A stretch of DNA of 64,000 nt, taken from sequence record PX969468.1; one strand, written 5' to 3'. The notes beneath the pieces were generated by a model that saw only the letters and a list, made by a program, of their open reading frames with translations, did no database searches and was not told the origin of the DNA. This document shows positions 54,587 to 62,050 of this stretch, in pieces. The translations under genes and the position numbers were made by a program. Within the stretch, counting starts at the first letter, position 1, and the number at the start of each line of letters is the position of its first letter. This DNA is from a phage.

Positions 54587-56332
54587 ATGGCGCAAGACAT
54601 GACAAGCTTCGAGCAGGCGGTAGATCAAGTAATTGTTGATTCTGAACGTTTGCACTTGATTGTCAACGGTAACGCTGTGGATGAAGTTGTCGTAGAGGAT
54701 GGGACCACCATCCCTACGGTACGAAAAGCCATGCTTGACACCCTTTATTTTAAAACGCCACCAATCCCTTGGGCGTATGGTGCATCCACAACAGTTTTTA
54801 ACCAGTTGTATGAGTTTAAAGGGGATACAGGCACTCAGTGGTGGTATGCCCCAGCAGCATCAAAATCTAACCCGGTTAGGATGCCAGCAGATCCTTCACA
54901 ATCTCCGAACTGGAGATTATATACCGATTCTGCAGTAATGGCAAAATACTACGCAAAACTTAACAGTCCAAGGTTCGAAGGTGACCCGAGAGCACCTACA
55001 CCTCCAATGGACGATAAGTCCGAGTCTATAGCAAACACAGAGTTTGTTGTTGACTATGTGGATAGTATATTCAAAGCCATGGAGGGGATGAAAGTAACTG
55101 TAGGGTCTTTGGTAGTAAAAGGTCTTACAGAACTGGCTAACACCATAGTTGGTGGCACCCTTACCATACACGGGCCTGTTAATGGAGCGGATTCTACTGC
55201 ACGCTTCAGGAACCTAATCCTTACTGCAAATACTTCTACACTAACTTTTGCGTGGAGCGATCCTAAGCATGCCGACTGGAGAAGCACAGAGCTGCAACCT
55301 CATGAAGTATCCACCCACAGAGTTATAGCCGACACTATAACCTCTGGGAAACCAGTGGCTAATAACAACGATGTGCATTTTGACGGTCTAGGTAATAACT
55401 TTTTTGACTACGTGTACATTCGTGGTAATGCCATGAAGGCAGCAACCGAACCGACATTGCAGGTCGATGGGACCACTAGGGTTAAGAACCTTGAGGTGAC
55501 AGGTACCGTTACAGGGATAACCTACTCTGTCGATGGCACCATGATCTACCCTAGCTATATTGAAAGCACGGGTGACGCATTAATAAATGGTGATTTGGAG
55601 GTTGGCGGGTCTGTAGTTATTCGAGGTACGGCCTCTATCCAAAACATAGCTCTGAATACTCTCAGAGTCAATGAGCGTGCAACTTTTGAAGGAGAAGGGC
55701 TTACAGCCAACAAAGGTGTAATTACCGAGCTGACAACCACCACTTTAACTGCAACAACTGCAAACTCTGAAAACTGCAACGTTACCAGAAACTTGCAGGT
55801 AAATGGGGATGTTAGTTTAAACGCAGCAGGTACGGGCACCACCTACCTTCACAACCTTGAAATATCCGGCACAGTGACTGGTTGGCTGCCAGACTTCTCT
55901 AATGTCAACTTTGTCTGTAATGGTATTAACTCTAGTGGTAAGATAACCACCTCTCAAGAAATTGAGGCTGGTAAAACCATCACTGCCCCTACTTTCCACG
56001 CAGGGAAGGTAGATTTCGATTTAGAGGAGGTTGACGCGTCCAGTGGGACATGGACACCTAACGGGCAGGCCAGTATGTATGTTGTCCACGCTAAAGGGGA
56101 TTTTACAATAGGCCAATGGCCTGGAACATCGGCTGAAGATAAACCTTACCCGTTTACTGCAATCATCTATGTCATTCAAGATGCCGTAGGCCACAACGTG
56201 ACTTTGCACGATAAATATGCCATACTGTCGGCTACCCCTGTTATTAACAACAAAGCCAACAGCGTCACCTTGCTACAATTGACATATTGTGGTGTTGGTG
56301 ATATCGTAGATGTGGTTATTGCACAACGTTAA
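54587..56332 (+). CDS. tail fibre protein
   Basis: 581 codons; motif KLNSPRFEGDPRAPTPP resembling the conserved tail-fibre motif; Gly/Thr/Asn-rich repeats. Confidence 0.55.
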   Translation: MAQDMTSFEQAVDQVIVDSERLHLIVNGNAVDEVVVEDGTTIPTVRKAMLDTLYFKTPPIPWAYGASTTVFNQLYEFKGDTGTQWWYAPAASKSNPVRMPADPSQSPNWRLYTDSAVMAKYYAKLNSPRFEGDPRAPTPPMDDKSESIANTEFVVDYVDSIFKAMEGMKVTVGSLVVKGLTELANTIVGGTLTIHGPVNGADSTARFRNLILTANTSTLTFAWSDPKHADWRSTELQPHEVSTHRVIADTITSGKPVANNNDVHFDGLGNNFFDYVYIRGNAMKAATEPTLQVDGTTRVKNLEVTGTVTGITYSVDGTMIYPSYIESTGDALINGDLEVGGSVVIRGTASIQNIALNTLRVNERATFEGEGLTANKGVITELTTTTLTATTANSENCNVTRNLQVNGDVSLNAAGTGTTYLHNLEISGTVTGWLPDFSNVNFVCNGINSSGKITTSQEIEAGKTITAPTFHAGKVDFDLEEVDASSGTWTPNGQASMYVVHAKGDFTIGQWPGTSAEDKPYPFTAIIYVIQDAVGHNVTLHDKYAILSATPVINNKANSVTLLQLTYCGVGDIVDVVIAQR

Positions 56333-56340
56333 TATATCTG

Positions 56341-56367
56341 ACCGCTCCTGACGGGGCGGTTTTCTTA
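56341..56367 (+). terminator. terminator-like hairpin
   Basis: stem CCGCTCC/GGGGCGG, loop TGAC, then TTTTCTT. Confidence 0.45.
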
Positions 56368-56380
56368 TCTGGAGAACACA

Positions 56381-59300
56381 ATGCTTCCAATCCCTTTGCT
56401 AAAACTTGGTCGTCATTTCCTCGATAAGAGGGGTGGAGTTAAGGAACTTGCTGTTCTGTCATACCCAATAGACAACAGTGACGGTACAAGCACTACAGTG
56501 CCATATGTAAATAGCTTAGCCATACTTTTTGACGACGGTCAACTCAATATTACAGGTTACAACAGGTTCGGGGAGTGCAGGACTGGAGATCTTGACACGA
56601 TAAACTACCCAAATGAGGCTGCCTGGAACGTTGATCATGTGTGGAGAGCAGACCGTGCGTTTGTGATCCGAACTTTTGATAATCAGTTTTTCTACATCGG
56701 CTGCACTGCAGGGCTTATTGGATCTGATGCTGCAGGTGGTAATGATGTTTGTGTAAGGGAGTGGACACCTCTTCCTGAACAGATTGTTAAAGGGTTGCAC
56801 CTTGACACCCACCCGGAGCGCCTTGTTGAGGTGATGGGTGGTATTAACAACACTGTCTGGGTTATTGCAGAGGCAGAAGGCACAGGCATACTGAATCTGT
56901 ATGGGTCTGGTAACAACACCTACGGATCTTTGCATGTAGATAAAAATCAGCATGCAACCCCTGTAAAGATCGGTGAGACATCGGAAAATCCTGAAACAGG
57001 CCCTTGGAAAAACCCAAGCATTAACTGCGAGGTGCATGACAACTCTGTTATTTTCGGTGGTCCTAGAGGTTTCTGGATTGCTGGATACGACTTTCTGAGA
57101 AATAACAGTAGAAACGACCTTGTTTGGCCTCCTGTGCAGATTACTCGTAACGATTTGAGAGGCATTCCTGCAGATGAGGAGTGGAAAGGGTTTATGTGTG
57201 GTCCTAACGGGGCAATAATTGCCACACAGAGGATGCACAAACCTAATGACCAGCAGCTTGTTAACGTATTCTACGGGCAAGACGTCTGGGGAGATGACAC
57301 ATGGCGTTCCTTAAATATCACCTACACCCATGAGGTGATAATGGCTCGTGGATACGGCACAAGTGGCATTTTCTTCAATAATGGCACTAAGCAGTATCGT
57401 GGGTTCTCTCGCAACTTGTGTAATGATATTGGTGCACAATCTGCAAACAATAGCCCTAGGGCCAATTTTATCCACTATCAAGCTCTTGCTACAGCTAAAT
57501 ATGTTGAGCAACGCCTGCCAGTTAGCTGGACAGAGAGTGTTTATTTCCAAGGCATCCACAGAGAAGGTTTCTTAGGGACCTTTACTGTTGTTAATGGTAA
57601 ACTTTGGTGGTCAGGCATCCCGAGGGGAAGTTTTGCAGGATCTAACAACCTGTTTGGCGGCAGACTTAATAGTCAGGGGTTCACAGAGGTTCCTGAGAAT
57701 TGGTATAAAAATGTCCCAGTAGACAGTTGGGGTGTTGATGATATTTTCGATGTTAACGGTGTTAGCAGCGTTAGCAATATCTACATTGGTGACACGGTCA
57801 AGATGAAACTGAAGCCTCAGCCAGAGGGGGCTACGTTCATTATTGACAAAATTGAACTGGTAAATGCTGCAGGCACGGTTGTTACAGATGCAAATTACCA
57901 ATTCTCCACCAACTGGAACCACGGTGGGGCCAACGAAGTTGTTGTTACCCAATATAACAGAAATGTTAACAGACGTGGACTGTACTCTGTAAAAATAACC
58001 TATCATGACAAACATGGCACAGGCAGAACCCACACAACAAGGACTTTGAACTGGAACACTATCGTCCCAGCGTACCCGTCTGATGGTAAATGGCATACTG
58101 TCGGTAGAAACAAACAGTTCCATGTCAACGATACTGTATACTTTGGGTTGAATGCCGCCCAGCCTGCAGTAGAAGGGGATACATCGTATATGGTCAGACT
58201 CCATAGAATGGATGCTGGATCAGTAACTTATGATGTTACTCAAGAGATTTATAATCAGCGACGAAATACCTATGATAACTTGGTGCAGACACAGGCCTTA
58301 TGGGAGTTCAACCCAAACGGCAGAGGTGGTAAAATGTTGCAGGTCAATGAACAAAACTGGACATCGTTGACTGTTCACGAACACCAAAACCCTTGGCCTG
58401 ATCCTGGAAAACCTAACTCTGGTGCTCGTACACTGAAAATTGTCAGCCATGATGTAGGGTATTTCGGAATACGCTGGGAAGCTACAGTAAGATATGCTGA
58501 TGGGACAACAAACAACATAGGGATCACTCTTGGTGGCACTAGTGAGGATAACTCACTGAAAATTGCCTACACCCCTAGAGGCATCTCTATTGACAATATG
58601 GATGTTGTTCGCAACGGTTACGGCGATGTGAATGTCAAAGTTACTCTTGGCGAACATCTTGGTGGGGAAAGGATCATCATGTATGCCTTTGATCATGACC
58701 CTCGCACCAATGGAACCTATGCAGACCAAGCATGGAGTTACCTGATAAGCGCACCTGAGCCAAATACTAAAGAATTCTACTATGGTATGAAGCGAGATGT
58801 GTGCAAGAAAACAGGAACACATGACTGGATTGCTATCTGCGTTAAAGATGAGCGCACAGCTTGGGATGAGCCTGTTAACAGATGGTTCATAGGTATTCCT
58901 ACCAGAAGTGATAAGTATGTCGCAGAGTATATTGTATGCATGGGCGGTACCAACCTGAACATGTGTTGGAACGAAGATGTAAACAAATACTCTGATTATG
59001 ACTATATGAGGGATTACTCTTGCAATCTGTGGTTTAACCAAACTACAGGTTACCCTCCGCGTCAGGCAAGGGTAAATCCTGCAATCTTTACAGATACTCA
59101 GGTTTTCTTGACAAAACAGGCCAACGAGGTTCAGACCTTCAAGAATAAATACGATCCTAACAAGTGGTTCTACAACTGTTACGGCGCATTTTTCTGGGGC
59201 CCTGGTGAGTTACCTGGTGGAGGATCTTGCTTGAATGAGGCAACTTACGCCAGTGACTACATCATGGGGCAGGTCAAGAAGTATAAGATAATTCCCGGTC

Positions 59301-62008
59301 CTGAAACTCTGGGTAATGCCGTTGACCCTTATATCATCATGACTGCACTGAGATCCAACATGGACGGGACATCCATGTCTATGCAAATTCCGGTAACAAA
59401 CGGGTACAAACGTGTTGTGATGATCATTAAGTGCGACTTAATAGGTAAACAAGTTCTTGCAGAAAACGGGACATCCACACATCCTTTTGAGGTTGCTCTG
59501 CACTATCAGTTTGCTGACTCACCTTTTGCAGGCGATAAGAGAATATCTGATACAGATGCACAGCGTTGTAAGAAAGTATTGTTGGGTGCAGGTTGGTGGT
59601 GGTATGAGTTTGATTTAACAGACAAATTCACCGACACGTCTAAAGTTGTAACAGGACTTCGTCTAGACCTTGGTGAGAACATGCACAAAGCTGTTTGTGA
59701 TGGCACCTATGGTGACCCTACAATATACCTAAAATATATTTCTTTTGAGCATCCGGAAGATGTTGTCTACGGTCCAAAACTGAGATTGTTTGGCAGTTGG
59801 ATTGCAAAAGATAGGGTAGGGATGGGTAAGAAGGTGAGAGGGTTCTTGGTTGATGCAGGAACAGAAGACATGCTGGTTAATGCAGTATGGCCTGAATTAC
59901 CCGGGACTCAGTGGAACAACTCAGCCAAATCTATAAACTGGTTTAACATTCATAGAGCCATGTGGACCACCAACTGCTACTTGTGGAGAGAGCTTAACGA
60001 TCAGGCCTTTGGCTTCAGCGATGGTAGAAGGATGGCGATCATTTGCTGGACAACACTGCAAAGATGTTATGACCATGACTACGAGATTGGGGGCAGGGCA
60101 TGGAAAAATATCAGGGACAGAATCATAACCAATTTTGCAGACGACAACGGTGGTGGAGCACATAACTTTGGCACAAGCCGACTCATCCATTTGAACGGAT
60201 CCTCAGCCTACAAGAAAGAAGGTTACTCTGGGTCTATGATCGAGTGGGGTCTGGTGAAAGATGCTCGCGTATTGATGGGCCAGCAACTTGCTGCCGCAAT
60301 AGGTCCCAGCGCAGTGCAGTCGGTTAAACCAGCGTGGTTCGATATTCCAATATGGTCATCTGGAACACCAGGAACTGCTGCAATCAATCCTACTACCGGG
60401 GATCTGGAAATCTCTTGGGAGGACTTGAAGCAGGTTGGGGGCTGGGATAAGACAGGGTACCAGGTGCAATGGTGGAGGTCTGACGGATCGTTAGCTGCTG
60501 ATGAGTTTGTTAAGGACAACTTCTACACCATGCCCTCTGCAAAAGCACAACAACTGTTCGGTCAGTCTACCCCGTCAACGATCACCATGTCCATGTGCTG
60601 TAAAGACAACAGGACTGGAGCTTTGGGCCCAAGGGTTGCTAAAGTTTTCTCAGGTATCAAATGGAATCTTCCTGTTCAAAGTGTTGCATGGAAGCAAATA
60701 GGCGATAACAAGCTGCTAGTTACCCCAGCTTGTCAGTTCAACGCAACTCTTAACGTTGATCCTGCTGTTGCGGCAAACTCAGCTAAAGCTTCTGACTTCT
60801 CTGTGTCTAACACTGCCATGGCAGATGTGAGGAAGATTGACACGCTGAACGCCAGAATTACCTGTAAAAACACTTATGGCACATTTCAGATCATCAACAA
60901 CTTCACAGACGCGGATTCTAAGGTAGTGAGGACAGCAAGCCAGACTCTGAGTTTAGGAACTCTGGCCTATGCGGCCCTGATCACTGAACAGTCAGCAACA
61001 CTCCAAGGGGGTGGTGTAGGCAAGTCCATTACAACACCTGTGTGGAAGCCAAATGAGTGGGTTGTGTTTGATTTGACCGTGGACTTCTCCAGCGATAATA
61101 ACTGGACATGGGTAAGGAATTGCTTGTCACAACTGATGGGTGGTCCAAGCTCCGTTAGTGATAGCCACTACTCCACTGACCCGAGTGTGTTTCAGGTGGG
61201 TAAAACTCACCCGGAGACTGGAGCAACGTTGCCTGACAGGAAGTATGCTTTGGTTTGCATCTCTTACGGGAAGGCAGATGTCACCTTCTCAGGGACACAC
61301 ACTTATAACGGAACCTACAACTTCTCAAGGAAGTATAGTCTCAAAGCAGGGAACATTATAGACGAGGTTGGTGTGCTGTATAATCCTGGCAACGGCATAG
61401 GGATTGTGGGCGGTAAACTGCAGATGCAGGAACCTTCTATTACCCCTTCCAACGTATCCGGGATTAGAAAGACTTGGGAAAGTAGTAATACCAACATTGC
61501 AACAGTGGATGCCACCACAGGGCTGGTAACATTTAAAGCTACTGGGAATGTCACCATAAAGTTTGTAGTTACAGATGATGCAGGCCGCAAAACGTCTTCA
61601 ACATCGTTTACTGTCAGACAGATGGCACCTCAGTGGTTTATTTGGGAAGGAAATCCTCTTGACGGGGCTTACCCTAGACCTGCAGGAACGTCCAATATGA
61701 GGGTCTTTACCGGTCCGGTCATGAACAATCCGACCACAACCACCAACCCTACATTTTTTGGTGCTTACATACCTGAAATTATTGGCCTACCAAGGAACCA
61801 GATACAACTGCTTTTCGGAGCAGGTGTTGATGGTCTAGCCACTTTTGGGTACAGTGACAACATTGATGCAGCCAGAAGCTCGGGTTGGATTGGATTTAAG
61901 TTTCAGTGGAACCCTGGTGGTAGAACATTAGGTGTTGCAAGCATAGGTGTTATGCTACCTGGTGACCAGCAATACCATCTCGAAGCTTATACAAACTTCC
62001 CTAGTTAA
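56381..62008 (+). CDS. very large virion-associated protein (putative receptor-binding/tail protein) with Ig-like domain
   Basis: 1875 codons, uninterrupted; N-terminal repeats with YGSGNNTYGSLHVD-type motifs (propeller-like, tentative); C-terminal segment SITPSNVSGIRKTWESSNTNIATVDATTGLVTFKATGNVTIKFVVTDDAGRKTSSTSFTV typical of bacterial Ig-like domains. Confidence 0.5.
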   Translation: MLPIPLLKLGRHFLDKRGGVKELAVLSYPIDNSDGTSTTVPYVNSLAILFDDGQLNITGYNRFGECRTGDLDTINYPNEAAWNVDHVWRADRAFVIRTFDNQFFYIGCTAGLIGSDAAGGNDVCVREWTPLPEQIVKGLHLDTHPERLVEVMGGINNTVWVIAEAEGTGILNLYGSGNNTYGSLHVDKNQHATPVKIGETSENPETGPWKNPSINCEVHDNSVIFGGPRGFWIAGYDFLRNNSRNDLVWPPVQITRNDLRGIPADEEWKGFMCGPNGAIIATQRMHKPNDQQLVNVFYGQDVWGDDTWRSLNITYTHEVIMARGYGTSGIFFNNGTKQYRGFSRNLCNDIGAQSANNSPRANFIHYQALATAKYVEQRLPVSWTESVYFQGIHREGFLGTFTVVNGKLWWSGIPRGSFAGSNNLFGGRLNSQGFTEVPENWYKNVPVDSWGVDDIFDVNGVSSVSNIYIGDTVKMKLKPQPEGATFIIDKIELVNAAGTVVTDANYQFSTNWNHGGANEVVVTQYNRNVNRRGLYSVKITYHDKHGTGRTHTTRTLNWNTIVPAYPSDGKWHTVGRNKQFHVNDTVYFGLNAAQPAVEGDTSYMVRLHRMDAGSVTYDVTQEIYNQRRNTYDNLVQTQALWEFNPNGRGGKMLQVNEQNWTSLTVHEHQNPWPDPGKPNSGARTLKIVSHDVGYFGIRWEATVRYADGTTNNIGITLGGTSEDNSLKIAYTPRGISIDNMDVVRNGYGDVNVKVTLGEHLGGERIIMYAFDHDPRTNGTYADQAWSYLISAPEPNTKEFYYGMKRDVCKKTGTHDWIAICVKDERTAWDEPVNRWFIGIPTRSDKYVAEYIVCMGGTNLNMCWNEDVNKYSDYDYMRDYSCNLWFNQTTGYPPRQARVNPAIFTDTQVFLTKQANEVQTFKNKYDPNKWFYNCYGAFFWGPGELPGGGSCLNEATYASDYIMGQVKKYKIIPGPETLGNAVDPYIIMTALRSNMDGTSMSMQIPVTNGYKRVVMIIKCDLIGKQVLAENGTSTHPFEVALHYQFADSPFAGDKRISDTDAQRCKKVLLGAGWWWYEFDLTDKFTDTSKVVTGLRLDLGENMHKAVCDGTYGDPTIYLKYISFEHPEDVVYGPKLRLFGSWIAKDRVGMGKKVRGFLVDAGTEDMLVNAVWPELPGTQWNNSAKSINWFNIHRAMWTTNCYLWRELNDQAFGFSDGRRMAIICWTTLQRCYDHDYEIGGRAWKNIRDRIITNFADDNGGGAHNFGTSRLIHLNGSSAYKKEGYSGSMIEWGLVKDARVLMGQQLAAAIGPSAVQSVKPAWFDIPIWSSGTPGTAAINPTTGDLEISWEDLKQVGGWDKTGYQVQWWRSDGSLAADEFVKDNFYTMPSAKAQQLFGQSTPSTITMSMCCKDNRTGALGPRVAKVFSGIKWNLPVQSVAWKQIGDNKLLVTPACQFNATLNVDPAVAANSAKASDFSVSNTAMADVRKIDTLNARITCKNTYGTFQIINNFTDADSKVVRTASQTLSLGTLAYAALITEQSATLQGGGVGKSITTPVWKPNEWVVFDLTVDFSSDNNWTWVRNCLSQLMGGPSSVSDSHYSTDPSVFQVGKTHPETGATLPDRKYALVCISYGKADVTFSGTHTYNGTYNFSRKYSLKAGNIIDEVGVLYNPGNGIGIVGGKLQMQEPSITPSNVSGIRKTWESSNTNIATVDATTGLVTFKATGNVTIKFVVTDDAGRKTSSTSFTVRQMAPQWFIWEGNPLDGAYPRPAGTSNMRVFTGPVMNNPTTTTNPTFFGAYIPEIIGLPRNQIQLLFGAGVDGLATFGYSDNIDAARSSGWIGFKFQWNPGGRTLGVASIGVMLPGDQQYHLEAYTNFPS

Positions 62009-62018
62009 CAGGAGGCAA

Positions 62019-62050
62019 ATAAAAAGGGGGCCAGACGGCCCCTTTCTTTT
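62019..62050. terminator. bidirectional rho-independent terminator between convergent genes
   Basis: stem GGGGCC/GGCCCC, loop AGAC, A-run upstream and T-run downstream. Confidence 0.65.

Follow-up and report, generated by a model that had tools for sequence, protein, structure and literature searches.

The distal fibres and tip adhesins of T4-type phages (gp36/gp37 on gp35, and the gp38-type proteins of T2, T6 and S16) are proteins docked on the end of another fibre. A locus that may follow a similar plan is considered here: a giant open reading frame (ORF) at positions 56381-62008 of the window, as we call the whole 64,000-nucleotide stretch of phage DNA that was analyzed (sequence record PX969468.1). 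As proposed below, this locus would share with T4-type fibres the combination of an essential proximal fibre and a separately encoded, exchangeable distal recognition module. The two systems differ, however, in that they have no relation of sequence or fold, the giant protein shows no trimeric fibre motifs, and its docking is suggested by gene-pair conservation only.

The closest described relatives are found in Vequintavirus, the rV5-like myoviruses. More than 100 Vequintavirus genomes match the window DNA along its entire length with 90-95% identity, the best match being Escherichia phage EduardKellenberger (Bas59), and on sequence grounds the window is a Vequintavirus. Orthologs of the giant protein include rV5 gp27 (ABI79098, 1878 amino acids (aa), 208 kDa), bas59_0040 and bas54_0041, which are 92-98% identical to it over the full length. 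They show no difference of substance from the window protein, which carries the C-terminal cassette allele ...AYTNFPS instead of the rV5-type ...AYATFSR. The family corresponds to PHROG 15684, of unknown function (phrog_15684, E = 0, 4422 bits, residues 1-1874 against profile positions 1-1877). Hence, the family is already catalogued while the protein itself is uncharacterised. Its labels are the following: rV5 gp27 was entered as a 1878-aa, 208-kDa "CHP" with Big_2 (PMC3606486 Table S3), a GenBank note calls it "cell wall surface anchor", and bas59_0040 and bas54_0041 appear in BASEL as "lateral tail fiber protein with intimin domain".

Positional homologs are also detected in other lineages: Phapecoctavirus gp231, named 'tail protein' (890 aa), the Seunavirus proteins 4MG_038, EspYZU15_31 and PVP-SE1 gp40 (~570-600 aa), and phi92 gp152 (202 aa). 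All are encoded by the last gene of the tail operon, after a head-bearing fibre gene and a terminator, and have an M-x-P-I-P start and Big_2 domains; an RCC1-like domain is present in all but phi92 gp152. However, they are devoid of the ~1200 residues that separate the propeller from Big_2 in the giant protein (an Ig-like arm and an orphan core), which are specific to the Vequintavirus type. Two further comparisons are suggested by the Ig-like domains. The Hoc protein of T4-like phages (Fraser et al. 2006, cited in PMC7344957) also has Ig-like strings, is dispensable in the laboratory and is presumed to bind carbohydrates weakly, but it is a ~40-kDa capsid protein encoded among head genes, whereas the giant protein is five times larger, is encoded in a fibre cluster and possesses an RCC1-like domain and an orphan core. 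Intimin and invasin share with the giant protein one Big_2-type Ig-like domain of ~50 aa; in contrast, the giant protein lacks a beta-barrel, a LysM and a C-type lectin domain.

We consider, with moderate confidence, that the giant protein has an accessory role in host range as part of the lateral tail-fibre apparatus. This reading is based on four lines of evidence: the position of the gene in the fibre cluster, a conserved N-terminus combined with a variable C-terminus, a swapped C-terminal cassette, and transposon data. The gene and its flanking signals are as follows:

56381-62008, plus strand: giant ORF, ATG start, 1875 aa plus stop, no internal stops.

56371-56374, plus strand: ribosome-binding site (RBS) GGAG, 6 nt 5' of the ATG of the giant ORF.

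56340-56367, plus strand: intrinsic terminator hairpin and T-run (rV5 t028) between the fibre gene and the giant ORF; the hairpin proper lies at 56340-56361.

62024-62045, plus strand, and 62042-62027, minus strand: bidirectional intrinsic terminator (rV5 t026/t027) that closes the late operon.

A previous examination restricted to the letters of the window (hereafter, the sequence-only reading) had described an uninterrupted 1875-codon gene with a GGAG-type RBS, preceded by a terminator and followed by a strong bidirectional one, and these traits were all confirmed. Both flanking terminators (t028 and t026/t027) are annotated in rV5, and the gene order (gp28-type fibre gene, t028, giant gene, bidirectional terminator) is kept, with the same neighbours as in the rV5 and BASEL orthologs. 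The giant gene is thus the last of the tail-fibre cluster on the late strand; minus-strand genes begin beyond the 62024-62045 terminator. No paralogs of the giant protein were detected in the window, and no internal sequence repeats were found in the protein.

The strongest evidence for a host-specific role is the strain-specific depletion of insertion mutants reported for the Bas54 ortholog in the HIDEN-SEQ preprint (10.1101/2025.11.20.689424). This ortholog is 94% identical to the window protein and has the same C-terminal allele. On K-12, bas54_0041 is listed among the tail-fibre genes that tolerate insertions: 281 of its 336 TA sites were hit, and the gene was scored as "Non-essential". 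The upstream fibre gene, bas54_0040, was hit in just one of 123 TA sites and was scored as "Essential" (10.1101/2025.11.20.689424). On a uropathogenic isolate, however, bas54_0041 mutants were depleted ~4.7-fold, as the mean count in the resampling output fell from 30.9 to 5.8 (log2 fold change -2.23, adjusted p printed as 0.00000; 10.1101/2025.11.20.689424). Two additional observations can be made in the same dataset. One is that all the genes from bas54_0032 to bas54_0040 are scored as essential on K-12, among them the two short-tail-fibre paralogs and the small ORFs that separate these, while the giant gene that comes next is freely disrupted. The other is that, in Extended Data Table 8 (supplement file 9), sheets Data S6 (K-12 vs CFE303) and S7 (K-12 vs CFE311) show the same TRANSIT command, which names the '311' sample, and do not differ in their values for bas54_0041; one of the two may be a duplicate.

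Another line of evidence is provided by the C-terminal end of the protein:

61631-62005, plus strand: C-terminal cassette of ~125 aa (aa 1751-1875), exchanged by recombination; candidate specificity determinant.

Synonymous (dS) and nonsynonymous (dN) divergence was compared between the window gene (56381-62008) and its orthologs in Bas54, rV5, Bas59 and YN3. The cassette allele of the window is also found in Bas59 and Bas54, while the alternative allele is found in rV5 and YN3. Between alleles, dN is 0.27 and dS is saturated; the remainder of the gene is 92-100% identical, and the cassette has been swapped independently of it. Conservation follows a gradient from a conserved N-terminus to a variable, mosaic C-terminus. 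Along the gene, dS varies about tenfold: in the comparison with Bas54, for example, aa 1-450 have a dS of 1.64 and aa 1441-1670 one of 0.18. Because differences of this magnitude are found between segments of a single gene pair, sequence comparison indicates that the giant gene is a recombination mosaic.

How the giant protein might be attached to the virion can be examined by considering the fibre gene that precedes it, together with the N-terminal peptide of the giant protein:

54587-56332, plus strand: upstream fibre gene, ortholog of rV5 gp28 and bas54_0040, encoding a 581-aa lateral tail fibre of the phiTE_241 family.

56015-56329, plus strand: C-terminal 'head' of the upstream fibre (~105 aa, aa 477-581), proposed socket for the giant protein.

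56381-56410, plus strand: N-terminal peptide MLPIPLLKLG (M-[LFY]-P-I-P motif), proposed docking peptide; a start of this kind is common to the positional homologs of four other lineages.

The upstream fibre is homologous to phiTE_241, the 793-aa 'Putative tail fiber protein' that forms chain g in the models of the phiTE baseplate and virion (PDB entries 9CUY and 9MJN; E 5.9e-77), and the alignment takes in N-terminal residues 8-325 and the C-terminal head. Its orthologs carry PF26208/PF26209 (Phage_phiTE_241_N/C). When the upstream fibre is compared with Phapecoctavirus gp232, only the last ~105 residues are found to be conserved (51% identity); the shaft of gp232 has been replaced by Tail_spike_N (a P22-like N-domain) and collagen repeats. 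The head is also present in phi92 gp151, in Seunavirus fibres and in phiTE_241. In Vequintavirus, two Seunavirus phages, Phapecoctavirus and phi92, the succession of a fibre with the conserved head, a terminator, an RBS and an M-x-P-I-P protein is kept, and the latter is always encoded by the next and last gene of the operon. The sizes of the M-x-P-I-P proteins are disparate (567, 890, 202 and 1875 aa; range 202-1875). For instance, phi92 gp152 corresponds to the Seunavirus protein with the entire propeller removed (54% identity over two Big_2 domains), and yet the N-terminal peptide is kept. In the window, the giant ORF is the only real ORF with such a start.

A conserved fibre tip that is co-inherited with a conserved peptide on a variable neighbour is what a socket and its plug would be expected to look like. 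A tentative interpretation, to which we give somewhat less than even chances, is that the giant protein docks on the head of the gp28 ortholog via its M-x-P-I-P peptide. In cryo-electron microscopy (cryo-EM) of Bas54, a Vequintavirus fibre of matching architecture bears, on its C-terminal head, density that was left unassigned and that the authors interpreted as an adaptor for a tip adhesin (PMC12143355). A candidate that was tried and not counted is phiTE_242, the product of the gene after phiTE_241: by eye it resembled a propeller-only homolog, and hhalign gave a probability of 0.4%.

The arrangement of signals upstream of the giant ORF may be relevant to the amount of protein produced. The gap between the stop of the upstream gene (56332) and the start of the giant ORF measures 48 nt, occupied by a GC-rich hairpin and a T-run. 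The equivalent junctions of phi92, Phapecoctavirus and two Seunavirus phages also have a hairpin followed directly by an RBS and an ATG, and such a hairpin appears in the phiTE annotation:

Terminator-RBS-ATG junctions in five lineages and phiTE: window 56333-56380; L003 8950-9003; L004 6948-7003; L007 6286-6336; L009 4332-4386; L014 15076-15089.

Since the interval between hairpin and ATG cannot accommodate a promoter, transcripts of the last gene in the tail operon must arise by read-through. Read-through past a terminator kept across lineages suggests conserved attenuation, and the terminator at 56340-56367 is probably leaky and attenuates expression of the giant gene. The 3' end of the fibre gene contains a good sigma-70-like site at 56279-56307 on the plus strand (TTGACA and TATCGT spaced by 17 nt, plus an extended -10 TG). 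It was rejected as a dedicated promoter of the giant gene because the terminator lies downstream of the site.

The giant protein itself can be divided into the following regions, in addition to the N-terminal peptide and the cassette:

56438-57715, plus strand: RCC1-like (beta-propeller-type) domain, aa ~20-445, more conserved than any other part of the protein and homologous to proteins that pass RCC1 thresholds.

57716-58930, plus strand: beta-sandwich (Ig-like) region, aa 446-850, with beta-strand modules predicted by AlphaFold2 (AF2) at 449-559 and 737-838 (predicted local distance difference test, pLDDT, 50-72) and a poor model for the remainder.

58931-60385, plus strand: conserved sequence-orphan core, aa 851-1335, with a beta-sandwich at ~966-1124 and then a helical segment at ~1125-1332.

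60386-61390, plus strand: further beta-sandwich modules, aa 1336-1670, of which 1451-1600 is swapped for an unrelated module in distant homologs.

61424-61579, plus strand: Big_2 bacterial Ig-like domain, aa 1682-1733 (Pfam PF02368, E 4e-8, 33.5 bits, cut-off 22.8).

Residues 1-450 show the highest conservation in the protein (70-84% identity to the distant homolog group). The sequence-only reading had noticed propeller-like repeats of RCC1 flavour in the first ~250 residues, and the Gly-rich motifs that it quoted are indeed present (FGECRTGD, aa 64-71, and YGSGNNTYGSLHVD, aa 174-187). The RCC1 flavour is upheld by homology to proteins that pass the RCC1 cut-off, while the extent had been underestimated, as the domain reaches aa ~440. 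Comparison by hhalign of a profile of aa 1-450 aligned aa 1-440 with the first 407 residues of Phapecoctavirus (ukendt) gp231 (probability 99.7%, E 1.7e-25). In turn, gp231 scores 23.9 bits with Pfam RCC1 (PF00415; cut-off 21.7) and E 9e-11 with WD40_RLD, and the Seunavirus homologs 4MG_038 (36.9 bits) and EspYZU15_31 (28.4 bits) also pass Pfam RCC1. The RCC1-type scores of the window protein itself remain below the Pfam cut-offs: 13.7-16.2 bits for RCC1_2 (cut-off 22), and a sub-threshold 17.6 bits for WD40_RLD PF25390 (cut-off 150; E 0.0025, aa 46-190). AF2 gave pLDDT values of 55-75 for aa 20-220 and below 40 for 215-449, and a Foldseek search with this low-confidence model yielded a weak match to the RCC1-like domain (RLD3) of HERC1 (E 6e-3). 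Altogether, we accept an RCC1-like domain of about 420 residues; the closed seven-bladed propeller fold is putative.

No Pfam matches were found in aa 446-850. The helical segment of the core is rich in invariant polar and aromatic residues (Trp, Glu, Asp, His), with invariant stretches such as ED (1162-3), NWFNxHRAMW (1186-95), EIGG (1235-8) and EGYxGSMIEWG (1280-90), and residues 951-1150 exist in two allele types among distant homologs. An exhaustive HMMER search with a core profile (aa 835-1440) against 1.84 billion cluster representatives detected no homolog outside the family; no match apart from the family itself was found among PDB sequences, Pfam, NCBIfam and PHROGs; and profile searches with sub-alignments of the core and the N-terminus added fragments only. 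The C-terminal Ig-like domain reported by the sequence-only reading is a significant Pfam match. When PDB sequences were searched with the full-length protein and with profiles of the N-terminus and the core, the only match obtained was one of ~48 aa between Big_2 and intimin and Sap. A test for intimin architecture was negative, as NCBIfam intimin_all scored 22.1 bits (cut-off 1400) and the match was limited to 39 aa of one Ig-like domain. The 'intimin domain' label found in databases therefore reflects one Ig-like domain of ~50 residues and not family membership.

AF2 models were built separately for aa 1-850 and aa 835-1875, from alignments that contained only 6-7 sequences. In the middle and C-terminal parts, every stretch predicted with better confidence is a beta-sandwich bead, globular in shape, and the Big_2 domain reaches a pLDDT of ~88-91. 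The models seem credible for some of the beads and for Big_2, and neither for the second half of the propeller nor for the helical core. Foldseek searches of PDB and BFVD retrieved only Ig-like or cadherin-like strings (the S-layer protein Sap, protocadherins, Hoc and T5-like pb4) together with orthologs of the giant protein, and no functional fold could be assigned. Pfam and PHROG scans of the whole protein and its segments detected no trimeric-fibre modules (beta-helix, coiled coil, collagen, Peptidase_S74 chaperone, or known baseplate adaptor domains). Catalytic, lytic and membrane-active domains were likewise absent by Pfam, NCBIfam, PHROGs, PDB sequences and exhaustive HMMER. Two suggestions of the sequence-only reading, an envelope-penetrating protein and a fused multi-domain depolymerase, thus find no support.

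From this architecture, a working model can be drawn of the accessory host-range protein, which as far as detectable is not an enzyme. The chain would comprise the M-x-P-I-P peptide, an RCC1-like propeller, Ig-like beta-sandwiches, the core, more beta-sandwiches, Big_2 and the swappable cassette. The N-terminal peptide, perhaps with the propeller, would plug into the conserved head of the upstream gp28-type fibre, an arrangement in which the giant protein would be an optional extension at the distal end of an essential fibre. The Ig-like arm and the C-terminal cassette might then bind glycans or proteins on the surface of particular natural E. coli strains, thereby extending or improving adsorption, and the giant protein would be irrelevant on K-12. 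The leaky terminator would keep its expression under that of the trimeric fibre. Of these elements, the identity of the gene, its selection, domain content and mosaicism and the conservation of the gene pair are shown here, and dispensability and strain-specific depletion come from the literature; the virion location, the docking partner, the ligand and the stoichiometry of the giant protein we infer. A more ambitious speculation, rather doubtful in our opinion, is that a plug-and-socket system operates in at least four genera of large enterobacterial myoviruses, made of an M-x-P-I-P peptide of ~10 residues, exchangeable modules of 202 to 1976 aa encoded by separate genes, a phiTE_241-type head and a leaky terminator that sets stoichiometry; in Vequintavirus, the docked module would be an arm of 208 kDa, monomeric, with a core of ~480 residues that might represent a new, sequence-orphan fold for binding or processing glycans.

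Several observations weigh against this model. In the mass spectrometry table of the rV5 virion, gp27 is represented by three non- or semi-tryptic peptides with 3.1% coverage and poor ranks, like rIIA, and was not counted by the authors; in addition, neither of the 288 and 174 kDa bands seen in polyacrylamide gel electrophoresis (SDS-PAGE) of rV5 matches 208 kDa. Presence of the giant protein in the virion is thus weakly documented and unproven. The sequence-only proposal of a giant receptor-binding virion protein is reasonable and fits position, modular pattern, cassette and transposon data. Solved phage structures include no homolog of the giant protein, and the AF2 models are of low confidence (mean pLDDT 42.8 and 49.5 for the two halves). 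The isolate on which bas54_0041 mutants were depleted is probably CFE311, the exact strain being uncertain. As for docking, equating the RBPseg 'TC8' (RBP65) fibre with the gp28 ortholog is our own inference. Furthermore, the head domain is also found on fibres without a downstream partner, in Klebsiella phage DP (Mydovirus; L008 4489-6249) and in jumbo phages (Sharanji, fHe-Yen9-04 and Erwinia phages), and 373 records contain the head domain vs 207 that contain the M-x-P-I-P/RCC1 protein. Because the head ends fibres that lack an M-x-P-I-P neighbour, it is not merely a socket and must have a function of its own. Lastly, the core could be an unrecognised enzyme missed by all profiles.

The latter consideration leads to an alternative that we regard as unlikely, though compatible with a fibre location: the giant protein might be a virion-borne enzyme (depolymerase, deacetylase or other glycan-processing activity), with core residues ~850-1335 as the catalytic part and the Ig-like domains as carbohydrate-binding accessories. 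The core does have many invariant acidic, histidine and aromatic residues, its rough AF2 model shows a beta-sandwich before a helical domain, as in some glycan-active enzymes, and glycan-hydrolysing domains are known in Vequintavirus fibres (PMC8594841). However, the helical stretch was modelled at a pLDDT of 24-35 and no fold can be assigned to it, and the core lacks matches in all the collections searched, including PHROG functional families and the 1.84e9 representatives. Tandem Ig-like domains, the presence of Hoc among Foldseek matches and dispensability in the laboratory would fit a different picture, in which the giant protein decorates the capsid, neck or tail in the manner of Hoc or of a whisker, and its Ig-like domains make the phage adhere weakly and without specificity to cell surfaces, mucus or debris instead of recognising a specific receptor at the baseplate. 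The PHROG for a 'structural protein with Ig domain' (phrog_215) is classed under head and packaging, and phi92 gp151, the counterpart of the upstream fibre, has been likened by others to a 'head spike' protein (PMC13450770). We nonetheless find this picture quite improbable: the gene closes a tail-fibre cluster, next to its partner gene for a fibre with a homolog on the phiTE baseplate, and recognition of specific hosts is indicated by the cassette at the C-terminus and by a depletion of mutants that depends on the strain.

The feeble proteomic support might also be explained if the giant protein were a late product absent from the virion, either released at lysis or intracellular, with a role as decoy or in superinfection exclusion or counter-defence. 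Being dispensable on K-12 but of conditional importance on a clinical isolate is a behaviour that the gene shares with anti-defence genes. Such a role is very unlikely, however, for a 208-kDa string of extracellular-type domains (RCC1-like, Ig-like, Big_2) encoded in a late operon, with a conserved tail-fibre pairing and an N-terminal peptide common to homologs of very different size. Finally, the sequence-only reading had suggested checking whether the ORF is an assembly fusion of several genes, and the region is split into two or more ORFs in some database genomes (nomine, magaca, Alma, APECc02, ime). The chance of an assembly or annotation artefact is negligible, because chance cannot produce an open frame of 1875 codons, the gene is intact, as one uninterrupted frame, in ~110 independent phage genomes, and purifying selection is strong along its whole length (dN/dS 0.03-0.12 in every segment, in pairwise comparisons with four orthologs). 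Besides, metagenomic homologs with 40-58% identity keep the full-length architecture. Comparative data thus refute this possibility, and the accessory host-range protein remains our preferred reading.

Some database records of the giant gene deserve comment. The annotations of nomine, magaca, Alma, APECc02, ime and V18 break the gene up into two or more ORFs or fragments (829, 396 and 293 aa), which could reflect either sequencing frameshifts or real disruption during laboratory passage; the latter would fit dispensability on K-12. Between 15 and 20 'Campylobacter phage' records with C. jejuni as host (among them GenBank MG065644, MG065646, MG065654, MG065655, MG065662 and MG065682) carry the giant gene and its neighbour, with 93-99% aa identity to E. 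coli rV5-like or Phapecoctavirus phages, and their host labels look doubtful. Part of the N-terminal domain is matched at 100% identity by a 318-aa fragment, a 'hypothetical protein, partial [Eggerthella lenta]' from a 955-bp contig, and a 124-kb contig attributed to Escherichia coli encodes a full-length homolog with 76% identity. Phage DNA included in bacterial assemblies is the probable source of the two.

Although the gene was known, the present analysis adds an architecture, a docking hypothesis and a core without detectable relatives. Three aspects seem worth following: the pairing of peptide and head across genera, the conserved attenuating terminator, and the orphan core of ~480 residues. 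The rV5-like phages are broad-host-range phages of E. coli, used in typing and in therapy cocktails, and the assignment of their genes to fibres is unresolved. If the proposal is true, considering gp27 an optional, strain-specific module on the gp28 fibre would help to read both host range and cryo-EM density, and a defined docking peptide with its socket would provide a simple handle for swapping receptor-binding modules.

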